Shown here piece after piece: positions 49,412-60,428 of a DNA stretch of 64,000 nt; within the stretch, counting starts at the first letter, position 1, and the number at the start of each line of letters is the position of its first letter. The stretch is taken from positions 2,399,380 through 2,463,379 of the forward strand of contig OZ242341.1 in the NCBI GenBank assembly GCA_965208545.1, written 5' to 3'. Below the pieces are notes generated by a model. It ran no database searches and was not told the origin of the DNA. It saw nothing but the letters and a program-made list of their open reading frames with translations. A program made the translations under genes and the position numbers. The stretch comes from Candidatus Poriferisocius sp. (GTDB taxonomy: Bacteria; Actinomycetota; Acidimicrobiia; Acidimicrobiales; Bin134).

Positions 49412-50209
49412 TCATACCGCTTCGCTGGGCGGAGGAGGATCGTTGGCGTGGCGCAGCATCTGTACCGCACTGACGATGAGCAAGATTGCGAAAAGGGCGC
49501 CCGACAATCGGGGGCTGAGCGCACTGGCGCCCAGCGCGCCAACGAACGCCGTAGCAACCCCTGATGCCCCCACGACCAGCGCCGACTTGGGGTCGATGTT
49601 GCCAGAGTGGCGATTCCTGAGGGTGCCGACGACCGCCGTGGGAAGGATAACCAGCAACGAGGTTCCCTTGGCAGTGGGGTCAACGAAACCGAACAGCAGG
49701 ATCAGCGCCGGAATCATGATCACGCCCCCGCCCACCCCCATGGTCCCCGACAGCAAACCAGTGGCCAGGCCGCAGGCCACATAGGCAAAAGCCAAGGCGA
49801 CGGTAATGTCACCGTGGCCGTCGGTGTCAGGAGCGAAAGCCAAGAAACGGGCCGCAGTGGCCAGAAGAAGTAGGGCGAATCCAATCCGGAGCGATCGGAT
49901 GGGGACTTCGTTGAGCAATGACGTGCCCGCGGTAACCCCCACCGATGAGCCGGCAAAGATCAGCAGGCCGGGCAGCCAGGCCACCGACCCTTCCAGTAGG
50001 AAACCTCCCAGCGCCGACGCGGAGATGAGCACCATGGCCCCCAGGGAGGTGCCGTGGGCTCGACGCTGCTCCATGCCCAGCAGCAGCACCAGGCAGGGCA
50101 CCATGAGGATCCCACCGCCAACACCGAACAGGCCGGACAAGAAGCCAGTTGCCACCCCGACTCCGACCGGCCCCCACTTCGAGTTGATTCCCCATTTCGA
50201 CTTGTTCAT
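49412..50209 (-). CDS. TauE/SafE (TSUP) family sulfite/organosulfonate exporter-like permease
   Basis: The GFLSGLFGVGGGILMVP motif is repeated in the second half (GLLSGTMGVGGGVIMIP). The protein has about 8 TM segments. Confidence 0.8.
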   Translation of the reverse strand: MNKSKWGINSKWGPVGVGVATGFLSGLFGVGGGILMVPCLVLLLGMEQRRAHGTSLGAMVLISASALGGFLLEGSVAWLPGLLIFAGSSVGVTAGTSLLNEVPIRSLRIGFALLLLATAARFLAFAPDTDGHGDITVALAFAYVACGLATGLLSGTMGVGGGVIMIPALILLFGFVDPTAKGTSLLVILPTAVVGTLRNRHSGNIDPKSALVVGASGVATAFVGALGASALSPRLSGALFAILLIVSAVQMLRHANDPPPPSEAV

Positions 50210-50249: not shown

Positions 50250-51827
50250 TCACTCGGCGGAGGCCTGCTCGCGGAGCACGTACTTCAGCACCTTGCCCGA
50301 GGCGTTTAGGGGCAGGGCGTCAGTGAATCGCACCCGGCGGGGCACTTTGTAGTTGGCCATCTGGTCGCGGCACCAGGCGATGACGTCGGCCTCAGCGGGG
50401 TCGGCCCCAGGAGCGGGCACCACCGTGGCCACCGCCACCTCTCCCAGTCGGTCGTCGGGCATCCCAATCACCGCCACCTGCCCGATTTGGGGGTGGACCA
50501 GCATGATGTTTTCGATTTCGGCTGGATAGGCATTGAATCCGCCCACGATGAACATGTCTTTCTTGCGGTCGGTGATGTCGATGTTGCCCTGTTCGTCCAT
50601 CACCCCGATGTCACCGGTGTGCAGCCAGCCGTCGGCGTCGATGGCCTCAGCGGTCTGCTCGGGGTCGTCCAGGTAGCCGAGCATCACGTTGTAGCCCCGC
50701 ACCACGATCTCGCCGGGTTCGCCCCGGGGCATCTCGTTGCCGTCGTCATCGGTGATCTGTACCTCTACGTCGGGGATGGCCCGGCCCGAGGTGTTGGCGA
50801 TGGTCTCGGGGGCGTCATCGTGGCGGCACATGGTGGCTATGCCCGACGCCTCGGTGAGGCCATAGCCGGTGACGATGGTCTCAAACCCCAAGCGGGCCCG
50901 CATCTGGAGGATCATCTCCACCGGGATGGCAGCGGCCCCGGTCACCGCCAGGCGCAGGGTGGACATGTCGAAGCTGTCCAGATCGGGATGGTTCAAGATG
51001 GTCTGGTAGATGGCCGGTGGTCCGGGCAACATGGAGATGCGCTCTTCGGGTACCCGAGCCATCACCGCGGGGACGTCGAACACTGCGTGGGGGATGTTGG
51101 TGGCCCCGGTCATTAGGCAGGCCAAGATGCCCGAGTTGAGGCCGAAAGCGTGGAAGTAGGGGTTGACGATCAGGTATCGGTCGCCCGCCCGCAGGCCAAT
51201 CACCTCGCACCACGACTTGAACCCCCGGCAGATGGCGGAGTGGACGAGCATGGCCCCTTTGGGCAGGCCGGTGGTGCCCGAGGTGAACATGATGTGGCAG
51301 AGATCGTCGCCGCTCACCGAGGCGGCCCGGGCGTCGCCGTCAACCTCGGATATCTGGGCGGCACGCTCTAGGAAATCGGCAAAGCCGGTGGTGCCCTCGG
51401 GGACGGACCCCCGCAGCACCACAATCTCGTCGAGGGTGTTTCCGCCGTCGGCGTCCCGAAGCAGGGCGACGTAGTCGGTGTCCAAGAAATCGGTCACGGT
51501 GAACAAGATGCGGGCGCCGGACTTCTGGAGGATGAAATCGGCCTCGCGGCCCTTGAACCGGGTGTTGACCGGCACCAGCACTCCCCCGGCTAAATGGACC
51601 CCCAGGCCGGACACCACCCACTCCCAGATGTTGGGGGCCCAAACCGCCACCCGGTCTCCCGGCTCGATGCCCGAGGCCACTAGTGCCCGAGCTGAGGCTC
51701 GGATTTGGTCCCGCAACTCCGGGAAGGTCCAACGCACATCGCCGTCTACCAGGGCTTCCAAGTCAGGGAACCGTCGGGCCGCGTCGTCAACCAACTCGCA
51801 GATGGTGGTCCACGGAGCATCTGACAT
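50250..51827 (-). CDS. AMP-dependent acyl-CoA synthetase/ligase (FadD-like)
   Basis: It has the AMP-binding motif I (MFTSGTTGLPKGA), then YGLTE, TGDIG, and the C-terminal PLNASGKVLK. Confidence 0.88.
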   Translation of the reverse strand: MSDAPWTTICELVDDAARRFPDLEALVDGDVRWTFPELRDQIRASARALVASGIEPGDRVAVWAPNIWEWVVSGLGVHLAGGVLVPVNTRFKGREADFILQKSGARILFTVTDFLDTDYVALLRDADGGNTLDEIVVLRGSVPEGTTGFADFLERAAQISEVDGDARAASVSGDDLCHIMFTSGTTGLPKGAMLVHSAICRGFKSWCEVIGLRAGDRYLIVNPYFHAFGLNSGILACLMTGATNIPHAVFDVPAVMARVPEERISMLPGPPAIYQTILNHPDLDSFDMSTLRLAVTGAAAIPVEMILQMRARLGFETIVTGYGLTEASGIATMCRHDDAPETIANTSGRAIPDVEVQITDDDGNEMPRGEPGEIVVRGYNVMLGYLDDPEQTAEAIDADGWLHTGDIGVMDEQGNIDITDRKKDMFIVGGFNAYPAEIENIMLVHPQIGQVAVIGMPDDRLGEVAVATVVPAPGADPAEADVIAWCRDQMANYKVPRRVRFTDALPLNASGKVLKYVLREQASAE

Positions 51828-51873: not shown

Positions 51874-53031
51874 TCAGTCAGCGGCTTGGACCGCCCCCTG
51901 AGCGATGAGGTGGGCGATTTCGAGGTCGCTTAGACCCAGATCGTCGGCCAATACCGAGCGGGTGTCCTCGCCCAGTCGGGCGGATCGGTGAGTGACCCCC
52001 ACGGTGGCGTCGCCCATGGCAAATGGTTTGGCCGGCACCGGGATGCCAGGGCGGATCTCAGCTATTAGCCCCCGGTCGGCAGCCCAGTCGGAGGCGGCTA
52101 GCTCGGCTACCGAGCTGATGCGAGCCGCGGGCAACGGCTGGCGCTCCACCACTTCGGCCAATTCCTCGTAGGTAGAGAAGCCGGCAACCAGCCCTCGTAG
52201 CAGAGAAAGGGCCTCTTCCCGGGTGGGCTGGTCGGGGCAGTCGTCTGCGTTGCCTCCAAGAGCAGCCACCCACCGGGGCAACATCTGTTCGGGATTGCCG
52301 ATCAGCGACACCGCCTGTCCGTCGGCGGTGCGGGCGACGGCGTAGTTCCACGTGTCGAAATCCCTGGGTCCGTCGTAGCCCGAGAGGTCGTTGCCCGCCT
52401 GGTCGTTGGCGTAGACGAGGGTCTCAGCCATGGCGACATCGAGGTGCTGGCCGTTGCCGGTGTGCTCCCTCTGATAGAGCGCGGCCAACACCGCGGACAC
52501 CGAGATGAACCCGGCATATAGATCACCGTGCTGGTGGATCTCCTGGAGTGGCTCGGCCTCCCGGAGACGAGCGGCCAGCTCGATGGTGCCAGCGACGGCG
52601 TGCATCATGGGAGCGTGGGCCCGGCGATGGGTCCACGGCCCGGTTTGGCCGAACCCGGTGATGGAGCAGAAAACCAGCCGGGAGTTGCGCGCCGACAGCT
52701 CCTCATACGACAGCCCGTAGCGGGCCATGACGCCGGGGCGGTAGTTCTCCAACAGCACGTCGGCCCGGTCGGCCAGCGCGGCCACCACCTTGGGACCGCC
52801 TTCGGCTTTGAGGTCGATGCAGATGTTGCGCTTGCCCGCGTTCATGTGGCTGAACGTGACCCCGATGCCGTCGTCGTCCACCGGGGGCACCGGCCGGGTG
52901 AGGTCGCCGGAGGGGGGCTCAACCTTGATCACGTCGGCGCCTAAGTCGGCCAGCACCCGCCCGCAGATCGGTCCTGAGAAGATCCGGGTGAGGTCCACCA
53001 CCCGGATGCCAGCGAGCGGCCCGTCCTTCAT
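51874..53031 (-). CDS. Family III CoA-transferase (CaiB/BaiF)
   Basis: It has GIRVVDLTRIFSGPICGRVLADLGADVIKVEPP and ENYRPG. Confidence 0.88.
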   Translation of the reverse strand: MKDGPLAGIRVVDLTRIFSGPICGRVLADLGADVIKVEPPSGDLTRPVPPVDDDGIGVTFSHMNAGKRNICIDLKAEGGPKVVAALADRADVLLENYRPGVMARYGLSYEELSARNSRLVFCSITGFGQTGPWTHRRAHAPMMHAVAGTIELAARLREAEPLQEIHQHGDLYAGFISVSAVLAALYQREHTGNGQHLDVAMAETLVYANDQAGNDLSGYDGPRDFDTWNYAVARTADGQAVSLIGNPEQMLPRWVAALGGNADDCPDQPTREEALSLLRGLVAGFSTYEELAEVVERQPLPAARISSVAELAASDWAADRGLIAEIRPGIPVPAKPFAMGDATVGVTHRSARLGEDTRSVLADDLGLSDLEIAHLIAQGAVQAAD

Positions 53032-53115: not shown

Positions 53116-54603
53116 TTACCGGTCGGGGTCGCCGTAGCAAACGAATTCGTAGGCCACCGCATATTCGGCGTCCACCACCTGCACCATGCCGGTGCAGTCG
53201 GGGGCAATGACGTGGTCGGCCGGCCACTTCACCGAGCCGAGACCGCCGGACTGCTGGGTGGTCGCAAAGCCGTCGATGTTGACCGCCTGGTAGAAGCTGG
53301 CGGTGTTCAGATCCTCGCCGGCGGCGGCGATCATCTGGATCATCAAATCGGCCGACCAATAGCCCACCAAGCTGCCGAAGCCGGGGAAGGCCCCAACTGC
53401 CTCGTAGTCAGCCAAGAGCTGCTGAATGGCCGGCTGCGAAGAATCTTCAACAGGGGGCACCTGGGTCACGGCGTAGCCGCCCTCCAGGGCCTGACCCAAG
53501 TCAGGGCTCGACCCGGGAAGGCCAGGAACATAGGTCAGATAATCGGCCACCGGGCCTTCATATCCCGAAGCGGCGATGGTCGCCTTCAGGGTGATGGCTC
53601 CGGCGAAGTCGGTGGACAGGATCACCAAATCGGGCTCGTGCTCCAGCACTGTGTTTACGAACCGAGTGGGATCGGTGATGCCGCCTGCACTTGCAGTAGG
53701 AACGAAATCGTTGAACGCCAGCTTGCCGGCCCACAGCGTTTCGTACAGCGCGTGACCGGCGCGACCAGCGTCGTCGTCGCTGTTGAAGATGCCGACCACA
53801 ATGTCCTCGGTGCCGAAGAAGTCGTACCAAATGTTCTGGACTGACACCAGAGGATCGGCGCCCTCGACTCCGAAGGCGAAGCCGCTTAGGCAGCCGTTGA
53901 AGCCGAAGCCCCAGTCGTTGGGGGCGCAGAACCCGGGCATGAATCCCCAGCCGGTGAACGGCACTTGGTTCTCGGCCAGGTAATCGGTGGTCTGGGGAAG
54001 CGACACCGCAGAGGTGACCATGATGCCGAACACCTCGTCGTTCTCCACCATGCTGCGGGCACCTTCGAAGTTGGCCTGTGGATCGCTGCCATCGTCCACG
54101 TATTGCACGAGTTCGACTTGCCGACCGCCGGGCAGCTCGCCGTCGCGGTTGGCCCGACCGAGTCGGGCGTTGATGCCGTCGGTGAATCCCCCGTACAGAG
54201 CATCCTGAGTCATGGCACCCAGGCGCACCGTGTCGTCGCTCACACCCCGAGTGGATGGCTCGAAGTCAATCTCGTAGGTGTAGGCACCCCAAGTGCGGGA
54301 GGTTGCCATCTCCTCGTCGTCCATGGGCTCGGCGTCATCCATCGGCTCTTCGTCGTCCATAGGCTCGTCATCCATGGGCTCTTCGTCGTGCTCGTGGTCG
54401 TCGTCGTCCTCGTGCGCATGGTCGTCGTCGTCCTCGTGCTCATGGTCGTCGTCGTCATCCATGGGCTCCTCAGCAGGCTCATCAGCCGGGGCCGGAGCAG
54501 CGTCTGGGGCCGGAGCGTCATCGTCGTCGTTGCCGCAGGCAGCAACCACCAACGCCAGCGCGGCCAAGAGCGCGAGAAGCTTGTGCAACAGTGATCGTCT
54601 CAT
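53116..54603 (-). CDS. ABC transporter substrate-binding lipoprotein, type I periplasmic binding fold (LivJ/branched-chain amino acid-like), with an N-terminal Asp/His/Glu repeat
   Basis: ATG 54603 is preceded by ggagggg. It has the lipobox VVAACG, followed by DDDDHEHEDDDDHAHEDDDDHEHDEEPMDDEPMDDEEPMDDAEPMDDEE. The Peripla_BP_6-like core follows (VRLGAM...GRQVELVQYVDDGSDP). Confidence 0.8.
   Translation of the reverse strand: MRRSLLHKLLALLAALALVVAACGNDDDDAPAPDAAPAPADEPAEEPMDDDDDHEHEDDDDHAHEDDDDHEHDEEPMDDEPMDDEEPMDDAEPMDDEEMATSRTWGAYTYEIDFEPSTRGVSDDTVRLGAMTQDALYGGFTDGINARLGRANRDGELPGGRQVELVQYVDDGSDPQANFEGARSMVENDEVFGIMVTSAVSLPQTTDYLAENQVPFTGWGFMPGFCAPNDWGFGFNGCLSGFAFGVEGADPLVSVQNIWYDFFGTEDIVVGIFNSDDDAGRAGHALYETLWAGKLAFNDFVPTASAGGITDPTRFVNTVLEHEPDLVILSTDFAGAITLKATIAASGYEGPVADYLTYVPGLPGSSPDLGQALEGGYAVTQVPPVEDSSQPAIQQLLADYEAVGAFPGFGSLVGYWSADLMIQMIAAAGEDLNTASFYQAVNIDGFATTQQSGGLGSVKWPADHVIAPDCTGMVQVVDAEYAVAYEFVCYGDPDR
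54316..54471 (-). repeat. In-frame tandem repeats: 3 x 24 nt (54388-54459, DDDDH[EA]H[ED]) flanked by 15-18-nt EPMDD units
   Basis: The 24-nt units are gtgctcgtggtcgtcgtcgtcctc / gtgcgcatggtcgtcgtcgtcctc / gtgctcatggtcgtcgtcgtcatc. They are preceded by four units of the form gtc[ga]tccat[gca]ggctc... Confidence 0.85.
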
Positions 54604-54669
54604 TTCCCCTCCGATAGTTGGATTGGCGACATAGTAGGCCAAGTGCTTTCTACTGTCACCCCGACGGAG

Positions 54670-57669
54670 TCAGTCTGAGTTGGCCGTTACCTCTCCCAGA
54701 TAGGCGGCGTCGAGCTGGTCGTGATCCACCTCGGAGCGGGGGCCGTGCCAGGTGATGTGGCCCAAGCTGATGAACGCCACCGAGTCGGCAATCTCCAGCA
54801 CGTCGCGGGCCTTCTCCTCTACCAAGAGCAAGGCCACGCCCCGCTCCTTGAACTCAATGAACAGTTCAAGGATCTGATTCACGATGAGCGGGGCCAAACC
54901 CAGCGACGGCTCGTCGGCGATTAGCACTTCGGGCGGGTGGGCCAGCAGCGGAGCCAGGGTAAGGATCTGCTGCTCGCCCCCTGAGAGATTGCCAGCCAGC
55001 TGGTTCTGGCGCTCGCCCAGGATGGGGAACCGATCACAGCACAGGTCGCGGTCCTCTGGTTTGGGCAGCCAGAGTTGCAGATTCTCCCGCACGGTCAGCC
55101 CGCTGAAAATACCCCGGGCCTCGGGGGCCAGCACTACGCCCCGTCGGGACCGGCGGTGGCTGCGCAGCGCCGTGATGTCCTCCCCGTCGAACCGGATGAT
55201 GCCGTGGGTGGCAGCCAGTAGGCCGGAGGCCACCGCGCAGGTGGTGGACTTGCCGGCGCCGTTGGGACCCAAGAGTGCAGTGATCTCACCCCGGGGTACT
55301 GACAAGTCAATTCCGTGCAGAGCCTCCACCAATCCGTAACTGGCCCTCACCCCCACGAGTTCGAGGGCAGGCGGGTGATCGCCGATGTATTGGTCGCCCA
55401 TCTCCTCGGCAACCGCAGGAGTCTCTGACGCCGCCGGTGCGGCTGGGACCGATTCAGCAATCCGACTCGAACTGGCAATCTCGAACTCTCCCCGCCAGGC
55501 AGCGAGCCGCCGACGCCAAGCATCGCGGCGAACCCGGTTTTGGGCGGCGGTGAACGCGAGGATTCCATCGGGCTCGCGGGCGAGTTGCATGGCGCCGAGG
55601 CCGAACATGAAGGCGGTGATGTTGCGGGCCTCGTCGTACTGGTCGAACCCGTCCCAGTCGATGGGATACCAGGAATACACGCGTGCCAGGCAGATAAAGG
55701 CCAGCACCGCCAGCACTCCGAGAATGGGCGGCGAGAACGGCAGCCCCACTTGGCGGTCTCGGATGGCGGTGAACAATGCCGCCGCCCCGAATACCGAGGC
55801 CACCAGCACCACGTGCCACGACTCCATCCAATCCCAGTGCCAGCCAGTGCCGAATGTGTGTCCGCTGGCCGCCACCATGATGCCGGCCATTACCGCGGCC
55901 CCAGGCCGGCGGATGCCGACCAAGATCACCACGGCCAGCCAGAACAGACCGGCCTGGGTGGTGGCGGTGAACGGAGTCACATTGCCGATGAAGGTGGCGA
56001 AAAACACCCCACCGAACCCGGCTAGCAATGCCGACAGGGCAAACACCGCCAGCTTGGTGCGAACGATGGAATGGCCAGAGGTGGCTGCGGCGGGCTCGGA
56101 GTTGCGCACCGCGATGATGGCCCGTCCGGTGACCGAGCGCTGGAGGTTTCGCACCAACCAGCCCGCGGCCAACACCAATATCACTAACAGCACTGCAAGG
56201 GATTTCTCGTCTTCCAAGTCGAACGGCCCCAGTTGTGGGCGGGGGATATCCCATCCCTTGGAGCCTTGGCCGTTCTTGAACCAGCTCCACTCGAACAGCA
56301 CCCGCTCGCTCATGAAGGCCAAGGCCAGGGTGGCCAATGCCAACGGCAAACCCCCCAGCCGCAGGGCGGGAAGTGCCACGACTACGCCCAGCACTCCGGC
56401 AACAATCACGCCCACGATCAGCGCGGGAATGAACGGCAGCCCGGTTTTGTCCAAGATCAGACCAGCGGTCATGGCCGCCATGGTCACGAAGGCCGCTTGG
56501 GCCAGGCTGACCATGCCGCCGAGGCCGGTAAGCAGCACCCAGGACATGAACACCAGGCCAAAGGCCAAGCCGGTGACCCACAACCCGAGCCAGAACTGGT
56601 CGGCAAAGACAAAAACCTGAAGCACGATGAACGCCGCGCCCAGGAACCACGGCAGTCGAACCCGCCACGCCGGCAGGTCGTCGGTGTAGACGGTGGCCGG
56701 AGGGGCGTCGGCCACCACCCCGCTGCGGCGAGTCCGCTCCCGGGCCATAAACAACAGCCCCACCAACAGAACTACGAACGGCACTGAGCTCTCGAATCCC
56801 CGAATGTCCTGGGCAAAGGTGGCGTACCGGCCCACCCAGCTGGTGACCACTCCCAAGGCCACGCCCCCGGCGAAAGCCAGCGGAATGGAGCGCAACCCGC
56901 CAACCACCGCGGCGGCGGTGGCGATGAACATGAACACGTTGTATTGATTGGACTCCAGCGAATTGAACACCGGGGCGCCGACCACTCCGGCCATCCCGGC
57001 CAGCATGGTGCCGATGATCCAAGCGGCCGACGAGGTGAACTTTTCGCTGACCCCCCGCAGCCCGGCCAAATCGGGTCGGTCCACCACTGCCCGCATTTGA
57101 AGCCCCATACGGGTGTGGCGCATCAGCGCCCACAGTCCAACGGCGACGACCACGGCCACAACCAGTACCGCCCACTGATTGCTGCTGATGCGCAGGTCGA
57201 AGCTCCCGAGGTCGTAGGTCCAGGTCTCGCTGGGTACTTTCCACACCCCGGGGGTGAGGAACACGTAGTCGGTGGATTGCAGGCTCCAGTCCCACGTCTT
57301 GGTACCCAAGTCGACAATCAAGTCGGTGAGCGCGGGTAATGCCACCAGAATTCCGATGGTGGCCATGACTTTGGCCGCGTCGTTGGCCCGGGCCAGGGGA
57401 CGAAATACCGCCACGTTCAGGAGTTGGCCAAGCAACGGGCAAAACACCAGCACCACGAGGAAGAACGACAGCAGCCGCATGCCCAGGCTCTCTATGCCCA
57501 GAGCGTTGATCAGCTGGAAATAGAGCATGGCCGAGGTGTAGGCGATGCCCCCATAGGCCAGGTTGAAGATTCCGGTGGAGGTGTAGCTCAGCGTGAGCCC
57601 GGCGGCGATCAGCGAGTAGATGGAGCCGGCGATGGCCCCGCTCACTAGCAATTGGATGAACTCGCCCAC
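54670..57669 (-). CDS. Fused ABC importer: LivH-like permease + LivM-like permease + LivF-like ATPase in one 999-aa polypeptide
   Basis: I trimmed the ORF to GTG 57669 (VGEFIQLLVSGAIAGSIYSL..., with gggggaa about 10 nt upstream). The second permease module begins near LPWFLGAAFIVLQV...LLTGLGGMVSLAQAAF. The C-terminal ATPase has GPNGAGKST, LSGGEQQ, LIADEPSLGL and LLVEE. The upstream 146 codons of the track ORF are Arg/Pro-rich and I rejected them. Confidence 0.8.
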   Translation of the reverse strand: MGEFIQLLVSGAIAGSIYSLIAAGLTLSYTSTGIFNLAYGGIAYTSAMLYFQLINALGIESLGMRLLSFFLVVLVFCPLLGQLLNVAVFRPLARANDAAKVMATIGILVALPALTDLIVDLGTKTWDWSLQSTDYVFLTPGVWKVPSETWTYDLGSFDLRISSNQWAVLVVAVVVAVGLWALMRHTRMGLQMRAVVDRPDLAGLRGVSEKFTSSAAWIIGTMLAGMAGVVGAPVFNSLESNQYNVFMFIATAAAVVGGLRSIPLAFAGGVALGVVTSWVGRYATFAQDIRGFESSVPFVVLLVGLLFMARERTRRSGVVADAPPATVYTDDLPAWRVRLPWFLGAAFIVLQVFVFADQFWLGLWVTGLAFGLVFMSWVLLTGLGGMVSLAQAAFVTMAAMTAGLILDKTGLPFIPALIVGVIVAGVLGVVVALPALRLGGLPLALATLALAFMSERVLFEWSWFKNGQGSKGWDIPRPQLGPFDLEDEKSLAVLLVILVLAAGWLVRNLQRSVTGRAIIAVRNSEPAAATSGHSIVRTKLAVFALSALLAGFGGVFFATFIGNVTPFTATTQAGLFWLAVVILVGIRRPGAAVMAGIMVAASGHTFGTGWHWDWMESWHVVLVASVFGAAALFTAIRDRQVGLPFSPPILGVLAVLAFICLARVYSWYPIDWDGFDQYDEARNITAFMFGLGAMQLAREPDGILAFTAAQNRVRRDAWRRRLAAWRGEFEIASSSRIAESVPAAPAASETPAVAEEMGDQYIGDHPPALELVGVRASYGLVEALHGIDLSVPRGEITALLGPNGAGKSTTCAVASGLLAATHGIIRFDGEDITALRSHRRSRRGVVLAPEARGIFSGLTVRENLQLWLPKPEDRDLCCDRFPILGERQNQLAGNLSGGEQQILTLAPLLAHPPEVLIADEPSLGLAPLIVNQILELFIEFKERGVALLLVEEKARDVLEIADSVAFISLGHITWHGPRSEVDHDQLDAAYLGEVTANSD

Positions 57670-57740
57670 CCGACAATTTCCCCCTGGACTATTCGACCTG
57701 CGCCACTCTAGTGGCCCGCTCTGATCGGTACATTCGTCCC

Positions 57741-58475
57741 ATGGACGAAGTGCTGTTAGACGACCTCGCTGCCGAACACAAGGTATTGGACGACCTGGTA
57801 GCCCGGCTGCCTCAAGAATCGTGGACGAAGCAGTCGCCGTCGCCAGGCTGGACGCTGGCCCACCAGATACACCATCTCGATGTGAGCGAGGGGGCCGCCT
57901 TGCTGGCCCTGACCGGCCACAGCGACCGAGTATTTGCTCCCACCGGCCGCTGGCCCGACCGCCCCTTGCCCAACGATCCCACCGAAGTGCTGGACAACTG
58001 GCGGTCTTCTCGGACGGCCAGTTTTGAGGCAATGGCCGGGCTGGACGCCAAATCACCGGTGATCTGGGGCGACGGCCCCATGACCTGCCGCTCCTTCGCC
58101 ACCTCACGGCTCATGGAGACCTGGGCCCACGGACTCGATTGCTTCACCACCCTCGGAGTTGAGCCGGTTGACACCGACCGGCTCCGCCATGTCGCCCACA
58201 TTGGCTACCGTGCCCTCCCCTACGCCTTCCGCAGCCAAGGCGTGAACCCTCCCGCCCCCCTCTCCGAGCTTCGCTTGGAACTGTCCTCGCCGTCGGGCCA
58301 GCTCTGGACTTACGGCGAAGAAATTGCCCTCCAATCCATCACCGGCTCAGCCGCTCACTGGTGCCGAGTAGCCACCCGCCGCATGGCTGCCGAAGACTCC
58401 GACCTACTCGCCAGCGGCCCTCTGGCCCACTCAGTCTTGGCCGTCGCCCGCGCTTACCTGTCGGATGGGGCATAG
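57741..58475 (+). CDS. Mycothiol-dependent maleylpyruvate isomerase N-terminal (DinB-like) family protein, TIGR03084-like
   Basis: ATG 57741 opens MDEVLLDDLAAEHKVLDDLVARL....W...SP.PGWTLAHQIHHL, the pattern of the actinobacterial DinB_2/MDMPI family. Confidence 0.65.
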   Translation: MDEVLLDDLAAEHKVLDDLVARLPQESWTKQSPSPGWTLAHQIHHLDVSEGAALLALTGHSDRVFAPTGRWPDRPLPNDPTEVLDNWRSSRTASFEAMAGLDAKSPVIWGDGPMTCRSFATSRLMETWAHGLDCFTTLGVEPVDTDRLRHVAHIGYRALPYAFRSQGVNPPAPLSELRLELSSPSGQLWTYGEEIALQSITGSAAHWCRVATRRMAAEDSDLLASGPLAHSVLAVARAYLSDGA

Positions 58476-59687: not shown

Positions 59688-60428
59688 CTAGAGGTCTTCG
59701 TAGTCGATCCGGTCGCTGCGAGCCGGTTGTCGGCCGGTGCGGAACGGGGACAGCGGGGCGTCCACTAGGAGGAACCGGTGCCAGCCCTGTACCAGGTCGT
59801 CCACCGCGGCCCGCCACCGGAGCAAGCCCTGATCAGTGCCCTGGGCCTTCTCGAATTCGGCCCAGGCCTCCCAGGTGGGAATGGCCCACAGCAAAAAGGC
59901 CTCGTTGTCGGCCACCATGGCCGTCTCCCATGCTCCGGCCAGCTCCCAGCCGAAAGGCTCATAGGCGGCGATGGCGTCGGTTCGCACCCGCTCTAAGAAC
60001 TCGGCTGACGCCCCCTGCTTGAGGCTCACCTGCTCGTGGGCGTAGCACTCGCCGGTCATCCCGTCGGCGCACAACTCCTCGATGGTCCGGGTCCACGGCG
60101 CGGGCACCAGCAAGCGGTCGGTGCCCGAGCGCCGGTAGTTGGCCGCCTGCGCCCACCACTTGGCCAGCTTGGGGTCTTGGGCCCCGGCGCCCTGGCATTC
60201 GAGGCGGAACGAGGTGGCCATGCCGTCCCAGCCGTCCTCCTCCCACAGATTCAGCACCTGCGGCCAGCCCCTGGTGGTGCCGACGATGGCCCACACCCCG
60301 TAGCAGAGCTGGTCGCGCTCGTCTTGGGCGATGGGCGACCAGTTGGCCGTCATGTGGTGCATGTAGTTGGCCCGGTGATGGCCGATGATGTCGATGAACT
60401 CGTGGATGTAGAGCTTCTCGTTGGCCAC
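59688..60428 (-). CDS. Hypothetical protein, possibly a tandem NIPSNAP-like alpha+beta domain protein
   Basis: The ORF has clean GC-rich codon usage, and its two halves share a ...G.W......NE...LW..P.W..W..FE pattern. I cannot assign a family with confidence. Confidence 0.5.
   Translation of the reverse strand: MANEKLYIHEFIDIIGHHRANYMHHMTANWSPIAQDERDQLCYGVWAIVGTTRGWPQVLNLWEEDGWDGMATSFRLECQGAGAQDPKLAKWWAQAANYRRSGTDRLLVPAPWTRTIEELCADGMTGECYAHEQVSLKQGASAEFLERVRTDAIAAYEPFGWELAGAWETAMVADNEAFLLWAIPTWEAWAEFEKAQGTDQGLLRWRAAVDDLVQGWHRFLLVDAPLSPFRTGRQPARSDRIDYEDL

Follow-up and report, generated by a model that had tools for sequence, protein, structure and literature searches.

An unlinked LivG as the probable partner of a fused LivH-LivM-LivF importer chain in sponge-associated Candidatus Poriferisocius

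The window analysed here, a 64,000-nucleotide stretch of the Candidatus Poriferisocius sp. genome (assembly GCA_965208545.1, contig OZ242341.1, positions 2,399,380 to 2,463,379), holds a minus-strand gene whose 999-residue product joins a LivH-type membrane domain, a LivM-type membrane domain and a LivF-type ATPase domain (H-M-F, with LivG as G in related architectures). The locus is that of an ATP-binding cassette (ABC) importer of the HAAT family (TC 3.A.1.4), and comparison across genomes suggests that the importer very probably consists of the H-M-F chain, an orphan LivG acting in trans and a binding protein, rather than of a homodimer with four transmembrane domains (TMDs).

LivH, LivM and LivF in one chain

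The stop-free frame in the open reading frame (ORF) listing spans 54670-58107 on the minus strand, and the gene begins within it at a GTG at 57669, a conserved start, as homologues align from residue 1-3 onward. Upstream of this start the frame runs antisense to the divergent DinB/MDMPI gene (57711-58475). Pfam placed two stretches of BPD_transp_2 (PF02653; E 7e-57) on the chain and ABC_tran (E 1e-26) at residues 784-922. H and M profiles built here told the two membrane domains apart, giving the two non-identical BPD_transp_2 domains, LivH-like and LivM-like, of a HAAT importer. The first-pass annotation had read LivH, LivM and LivF in one chain from the sequence, and the intact gene, its Pfam domains and the LivF-type scores given below bear this out; the motifs that it quoted (GPNGAGKST, LSGGEQQ, LIADEPSLGL and LLVEE) all occur in the translation. 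The parts of the gene are as follows, with AF2 standing for AlphaFold2 and pLDDT for its predicted local distance difference test score.

54670..57669, minus: fused LivH-LivM-LivF gene (ORF, Pfam, AF2 model, a full-length orthologue in 26 of the 30 other genus genomes)
56740..57669, minus: LivH-type membrane domain, residues 1-310 (first BPD_transp_2 stretch; UrtB-like match at residues 7-280; AF2 helices at 2-310)
56671..56739, minus: short basic and Pro-rich LivH-LivM linker, residues 311-333 (pLDDT <50 at 314-321; conserved 'RDRxRRGGS...DLPxWR' in the family alignment)
55495..56670, minus: LivM-type membrane domain with a C-terminal amphipathic/basic helix, residues 334-725 (BPD_transp_2 at 364-622)
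55645..55830, minus: genus-specific insertion of ~60 residues in LivM, residues ~614-675 (two hydrophobic helices, Trp-rich flanks)
55375..55494, minus: variable low-complexity stretch that tethers the ATPase to LivM, residues 726-765 (unaligned, of varying length among homologues; pLDDT <50 at 731-759)
54670..55374, minus: LivF-type ATPase domain, residues 766-999 (Walker A GPNGAGKST, signature LSGGEQQ, Walker B LIADEPS, non-canonical switch 'LLVEEKAR')

The AF2 model of the whole chain, made from a 62-sequence alignment, had a mean pLDDT of 79 and a predicted template modelling score (pTM) of 0.78. It was confident over LivH (residues 2-310), LivM (334-612 and 679-725) and LivF (767-991) and poor over the H-M linker, residues 614-671 (pLDDT <50) and residues 731-759. 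The second of these poor stretches lies in the LivM insertion, whose hydrophobic peaks fall at 615-633 and 643-661. The insertion is without counterpart in most homologues at 47-55% identity, which run from 'GFHxxF' straight into 'LxWDG', and independent insertions occupy this site in two homologues (P0046 and P0091). Since two helices are an even number, the insertion would keep the LivM C-terminus, and hence the ATPase, cytoplasmic. In every homologue aligned, LivM ends in a conserved 'LFGLGAxQLARxPDG...AAQNRxRR', which is followed by the variable tether. The Trp-rich C-terminal membrane extension of LivM described from the first reading is thus a genus-specific insertion inside the LivM end and not an extension shared by the whole family. 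Residues 620-770 were also considered as the remnant of a deleted LivG, and this was rejected; the segment is hydrophobic, helical and mostly genus-specific insertion, with no ATPase-domain similarity and only two self-type matches.

The ATPase domain is of the LivF/UrtE type, scoring 161 bits to the NCBIfam model for UrtE and 144 to that for LivF, values that fall below the equivalog cut-offs but well above the scores to UrtD (102) and LivG (93). In the ATPase tree described below it lies within the LivF clade, together with the fused F domains of relatives (support 100/100). Its best solved relative is 1ji0 (171 bits, 41% identity, TM 0.85 for the target). Alignment with this structure places 'VEEK' of the switch on 'VEQN', so that a Glu occupies the Gln position of LivF; E951, E952 and K953 do not vary across the 62-sequence family alignment, whereas VEQ(N/S/F) stands at this place in each of the 19 LivF paralogues that the genome encodes.

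A long frame in a high-GC genome might be spurious, livH, livM and livF genes that are in truth separate having been run together by an assembly error or a frameshift, given that such genomes yield long chance ORFs and that this frame reaches 58107. Colinear orthologues kept across the genus exclude a frameshift for practical purposes: 26 of the 30 other genus genomes encode a colinear full-length orthologue at 82-96% identity (one with an internal TAG stop), and a colinear protein of 995-1040 residues recurs in more than 35 independent assemblies at 79-96% identity and in more than 100 clusters at 46-57% identity. Among the 5.8 billion proteins searched, over 100 homologue clusters matched at 99-100% query coverage and 46-93% identity, all with PF02653 and PF00005, and the domain junctions are conserved sequence and not frame slips. 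Taken together, these results leave the artefact a negligible probability.

The same searches revealed how widespread the arrangement is. Source names of the clusters were Acidimicrobiia, Acidimicrobiales or 'Candidatus Poriferisocius', and their JGI labels already describe fused permease/ATPase components. Classification of the best 150 representatives at 50% identity, using profiles built from this genome's own domains, gave 37 H-M-F, 29 H-M, 22 H-M-G-F, 22 H-M-F-G, 21 M-F, 6 M-G-F and 5 H-M-G architectures. The 3.6-Mb genome itself has 56 BPD_transp_2 matches, and its fused chains include eight H-M-G, one H-M-F-G, two M-G and two H-M. The view that a TMD-TMD-ATPase order with one nucleotide-binding domain (NBD) is atypical thus fails, because fusion of HAAT subunits is the rule here, and the architecture is common in public databases, an outcome that the first-pass annotation had itself named as counting against its reading. 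The H-M-F fusion is an old and widespread trait of this protein family in Acidimicrobiia, and the chain belongs to a widespread, unstudied but already catalogued HAAT fusion subfamily, whose colinear LivH-LivM-LivF order and invariant 'LLVEEKAR' it shares. Literature searches on fused LivH/LivM/LivF, fused HAAT and Poriferisocius found no paper describing fused HAAT chains, the matches using 'fused' in other senses.

Several other fusions were observed in this genome. Seven MFS_1-LivF fusions (725-784 residues, with a full major facilitator superfamily (MFS) membrane domain of ~400 residues) each lie directly upstream of a LivH-LivM-LivG gene, so that seven of the eight LivH-LivM-LivG chains are preceded by an MFS-LivF gene and one by a LivF gene in which no MFS match was found. 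These genes are at G000:C1:394325-396526 (minus strand; L033:5326-7527 in locus numbering), with a weak Peripla_BP_6 gene alongside, and at C1:2006812, 401839, 1084621, 624585, 1104686 and 2859873; such a coupling of an MFS domain with an ABC ATPase is odd. A LivH-LivM-LivF-LivG chain of 1284 residues (G000:C1:924595-928449, minus strand) carries all four core HAAT modules, and its F-G order and the reverse G-F order are equally frequent among the best 150 representatives. HAAT fusion in Acidimicrobiia therefore extends to H-M-F, H-M-G, H-M-F-G and MFS-LivF within one 3.6-Mb genome.

An orphan LivG as the missing subunit

A genome-wide profile search with the LivG tail model PF12399 (BCA_ABC_TP_C) and the LivG and LivF equivalog models found no LivG-type ATPase domain inside the 64-kb window, as the first-pass annotation had stated for the locus. 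The genome holds 20 LivG-type and 20 LivF-type ATPase domains, of which 19 of each are paired within HAAT loci. The unpaired remainder is the LivF domain of the fused chain and a stand-alone LivG at C1:1248935-1249744, 1.2 Mb from the fused gene. This LivG is intact, with a score of 226 bits against the LivG model and of 41-45 bits against PF12399, and it would supply, from outside the locus, the LivG/UrtD-type ATPase with BCA_ABC_TP_C tail that a HAAT importer has. No permease, LivF or binding protein was found near it; it lies behind two acyl-CoA dehydrogenase (ACAD) genes, among ACADs and CoA-transferase subunits. A search of the genome for an orphan livG, proposed at the first reading, thus found one.

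Public assemblies provided six distant H-M-F loci at 47-53% identity, and in five of the six a separate LivG with a BCA_ABC_TP_C tail lies no more than two genes away. It precedes the fusion in L034, L051 and L052, follows it in L036 and is divergent in L050. The LivG beside the fusion in L051 (L051:3582-4463, contig_25085 of ERZ25039554) was called at 193 residues, with its Walker A part in another upstream frame; this short call is either a frameshift or an assembly error of that record. A maximum-likelihood tree of 52 ATPase domains placed the orphan LivG and the five fusion-adjacent LivGs of relatives in one clade (100/100), matched by a clade of the fused F domains (100/100), and the nearest outgroups of the two clades correspond, G_2465172 to F_2464429 and G_310063 to F_310923. 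Tree and adjacency together therefore identify the orphan LivG as the orthologous partner, moved away from the operon.

Distribution within the genus is in agreement. Among the 30 other genus genomes, 23 have both genes and three (G005, G012 and G046; 95-98% complete) have neither, a pattern that we read as consistent support and not as a statistic because related genomes are not independent. Three genomes have H-M-F alone and one has LivG alone, and all four are assemblies of 240-310 contigs that are 68-92% complete. The two genes are 0.45-1.4 Mb apart in closed genus genomes, indicating that the unlinking predates the genus. The orphan LivG is 87-97% conserved across the genus, and its neighbourhood (a nitronate monooxygenase, two ACADs, LivG, a small SRPBCC-like ORF, a low-molecular-weight-phosphatase-like gene and another ACAD) was colinear in five of five genomes checked, with the SRPBCC-like ORF and the third ACAD unmatched in L055.

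These findings bear on two other ways in which the chain might obtain a complete set of ATPases. In the first, proposed together with recruitment of a distant LivG in the first-pass annotation, the chain homodimerises through its single LivF, giving a four-TMD, two-NBD assembly that needs no LivG. An operon without livG and a long flexible tether ahead of the ATPase domain would suit such an assembly. Nevertheless, a dedicated, conserved and orthologous LivG co-occurs with the fusion and adjoins it in most distant relatives. In ordinary HAAT systems a LivH and LivM pair is served by one LivG/LivF ATPase pair, and the chain already contains such a membrane pair; moreover, an F/F dimer would join two non-canonical 'VEEK' switches. 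We found no support for the homodimer and regard it as highly improbable.

In the second, the chain borrows the LivG of another HAAT system and the orphan serves something else. The nearest LivG-type domain to the window, C1:2465172-2465894, begins 1.8 kb past the window end, in a sister system (C1:2464429-2468076, minus strand) that starts 1 kb past the window end and consists of a fused LivH-LivM gene (732 residues) followed by separate LivG and LivF genes. This system is the closest paralogue of the H-M-F/LivG pair, and its LivG, G_2465172, lies only 8 kb away and is nearer to the partner clade than any other paralogue. However, that LivG is paired with its own LivF within the operon, and F_2464429 takes the mirroring place in the tree; it is the orphan LivG, and not G_2465172, that is orthologous to the LivGs adjoining H-M-F in relatives; and the genome contains no other LivG-less system for the orphan to serve. 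Borrowing is thus improbable, and the LivG at C1:2465172 was rejected as the partner, having its own LivF and H-M permease and being a mere sister paralogue of the partner clade. The first-pass annotation had allowed for a livG just outside the window in the same operon; one does lie outside, but it belongs to this separate, complete H-M + G + F system, with opposite-strand genes in between. From an H-M, G, F gene order of this kind, loss or relocation of the middle livG would put livF beside H-M, a plausible route to the H-M-F fusion.

We therefore favour recruitment of the orphan LivG, strongly supported by the ATPase inventory, the tree, adjacency in relatives and co-occurrence in the genus. 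The chain would supply three of the four core subunits (LivH, LivM and LivF) of a binding-protein-dependent HAAT importer, the single orphan gene G000:C1:1248935-1249744, in a conserved acyl-CoA dehydrogenase cluster, would supply the fourth, and the complex would have the usual two TMDs and a LivF/LivG heterodimer, fed by the lipoprotein of the adjoining gene. The transporter would be ordinary in composition because LivG is intact elsewhere in the genome and the fusion is common in relatives; what is particular to the genus is the unlinking of livG from the operon and the two added helices near the LivM end. Read against the whole genome, what seemed a locus short of an ATPase would thus belong to an ordinary ABC importer with all four modules. 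Transporters of this kind will be miscounted in sponge symbionts wherever annotation pipelines or length filters look for livH, livM, livG and livF as separate genes.

Gene context, substrate and ATP sites

The fused gene heads a run of co-oriented genes, and the first reading had placed its neighbours correctly, with the binding protein next downstream and a divergent gene upstream, as Pfam confirmed.

57711..58475, plus: divergent DinB/MDMPI_N-family gene, upstream boundary of the operon (Pfam MDMPI_N, 1.8e-21)
53116..54642, minus: solute-binding lipoprotein, Peripla_BP_6, next gene downstream (Pfam 1e-26; lipobox LVVAAC; likely start at Met14 of the ORF)
51874..53031, minus: family III CoA-transferase, co-oriented downstream (Pfam CoA_transf_3, 9.5e-82)
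50250..51827, minus: AMP-forming acyl-CoA ligase, co-oriented downstream (Pfam AMP-binding and AMP-binding_C)
49412..50209, minus: TauE/SafE-type membrane protein, co-oriented, ending the gene run (Pfam TauE, 1.5e-46)

The product of 53116-54642 is the Peripla_BP_6 (LivJ/K-like) binding protein of the HAAT system. Right after its lipobox Cys it has a tract of ~90 residues rich in Asp, His and Glu (window 54316-54471, minus strand), DDDDHEHEDDDDHAHEDDDDHEHDEE followed by EEPMDD repeats, which may be a metal-binding or spacer segment. Genes for an amidohydrolase, an enoyl-CoA hydratase, a Zn-dehydrogenase and a luciferase-like oxygenase lie near the operon; a 246-residue ORF between the amidohydrolase and enoyl-CoA hydratase genes (59688-60428, minus strand) had no Pfam match at E 0.001. 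The start codons of the fusion and the divergent MDMPI_N gene are 41 bp apart, and comparison by eye of the intergenic regions upstream of the operon (41 bp) and of the orphan livG (~65 bp) revealed no evident shared regulatory motif.

The binding protein had no NCBIfam equivalog match. The context of the operon suggests that the substrate is a carboxylic acid destined for CoA-thioester activation and beta-oxidation-type breakdown, rather than a branched-chain amino acid, because a CoA-transferase and an acyl-CoA ligase follow the fusion, because relatives have similar contexts and because the orphan LivG lies among ACADs and CoA-transferase subunits. In relatives, CoA-transferase, hydratase, thiolase/ChsH2 and similar genes adjoin the fusion, and the CoA_transf_3 family recurs beside the H-M-F loci of L034 and L052.

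Examination of the partner LivGs showed normal Walker A, Walker B and 'VEHD' switch motifs and an altered signature, LPIG(K/R)xR in relatives and LPIARAR in this genome. The alignment of the orphan LivG with MJ1267 (1g6h) runs over the full length, and its 'LPIAR' falls on LSGGE of an LptB-like structure. As judged from these motifs, the ATP site formed by the Walker A and 'VEEK' switch of LivF with the 'LPIARAR' signature of LivG would be degenerate, and the site formed by the LivG Walker A and the LivF signature would be the catalytic one. Both the stable genus-wide separation of an ATPase gene from its transporter and the non-canonical ATP site seen throughout the family give ABC-transporter biochemistry something modest that can be put to the test.

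A more speculative proposal combines these two features and is, as a whole, rather unlikely to hold. The H-M-F/LivG family might be an obligately asymmetric HAAT importer with one catalytic site, the other site (LivF Walker A, the Glu-for-Gln/His switch and the LivG 'LPxGK/R' pseudo-signature) only binding nucleotide, and in the sponge-associated genus uptake might be coupled to how strongly the downstream beta-oxidation-type pathway is expressed, through supply of LivG from the acyl-CoA dehydrogenase operon. If true, this would be an ABC importer controlled by the amount of one subunit, its catalytic ATPase LivG.

Several points temper the interpretation that the orphan LivG completes the importer. 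L049, the sixth of the distant loci and the closest outgroup locus (57% identity), shows no LivG within the 6 kb of upstream sequence visible or among the two genes that follow the fusion, so that adjacency of LivG is not universal in the family. Joint presence and absence in the genus, whose genomes are not independent, may reflect as few as one to three losses. The sister LivG at C1:2465172, 8 kb away, could cross-serve the chain. Physical association of H-M-F and LivG is deduced from genomes, the substrate from gene context and the degenerate site from a reading of motifs.

Comparison with known systems

The E. coli LIV-I system (LivJ/K-LivHMGF) and the urea importer UrtABCDE, both of TC 3.A.1.4, have the same parts list as proposed here: two different BPD_transp_2 domains (LivH/UrtB-like and LivM/UrtC-like), two ATPases, one of LivF/UrtE type and one of LivG/UrtD type, and a Peripla_BP_6-type binding protein. 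In contrast to these systems, three of the four core subunits are here one polypeptide and livG is 1.2 Mb away. The LivF domain has 'VEEK' for 'VEQN', the partner LivG has LPxG/A-K/R for the signature, and the gene context points to organic-acid and not amino-acid uptake.

Thermotoga maritima TM1139 (1ji0), of LivF type, and MJ1267 (1g6h), of LivG type, are stand-alone soluble subunits, and 1ji0 has the usual switch Gln. No solved HAAT membrane domain was present among the best 60 sequence matches and best 50 fold matches in the PDB; the best 50 fold matches of the AF2 model covered only the ATPase domain (1ji0, LptB) and gave nothing on TMD packing.

The other fused HAAT systems of this genome likewise have two TMDs first and the ATPase last. 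Unlike the chain studied here, the H-M-G and H-M-F-G chains fuse LivG or both ATPases, not LivF alone, and the free ATPase of the H-M-G chains is encoded directly upstream.

The closest parallels are the Acidimicrobiia H-M-F fusions with an adjacent LivG (locus L034 of GCA_035525225.1, together with L036 and L050-L052), which are colinear with the chain over 99-100% of its length at 47-57% identity. They share with it 'VEEK', the partner-LivG clade, the binding-protein neighbour and often a CoA-transferase neighbour. In those loci the partner livG stands in the same locus as the fusion, whereas here and throughout the genus it is unlinked and LivM carries the two-helix insertion of ~60 residues.

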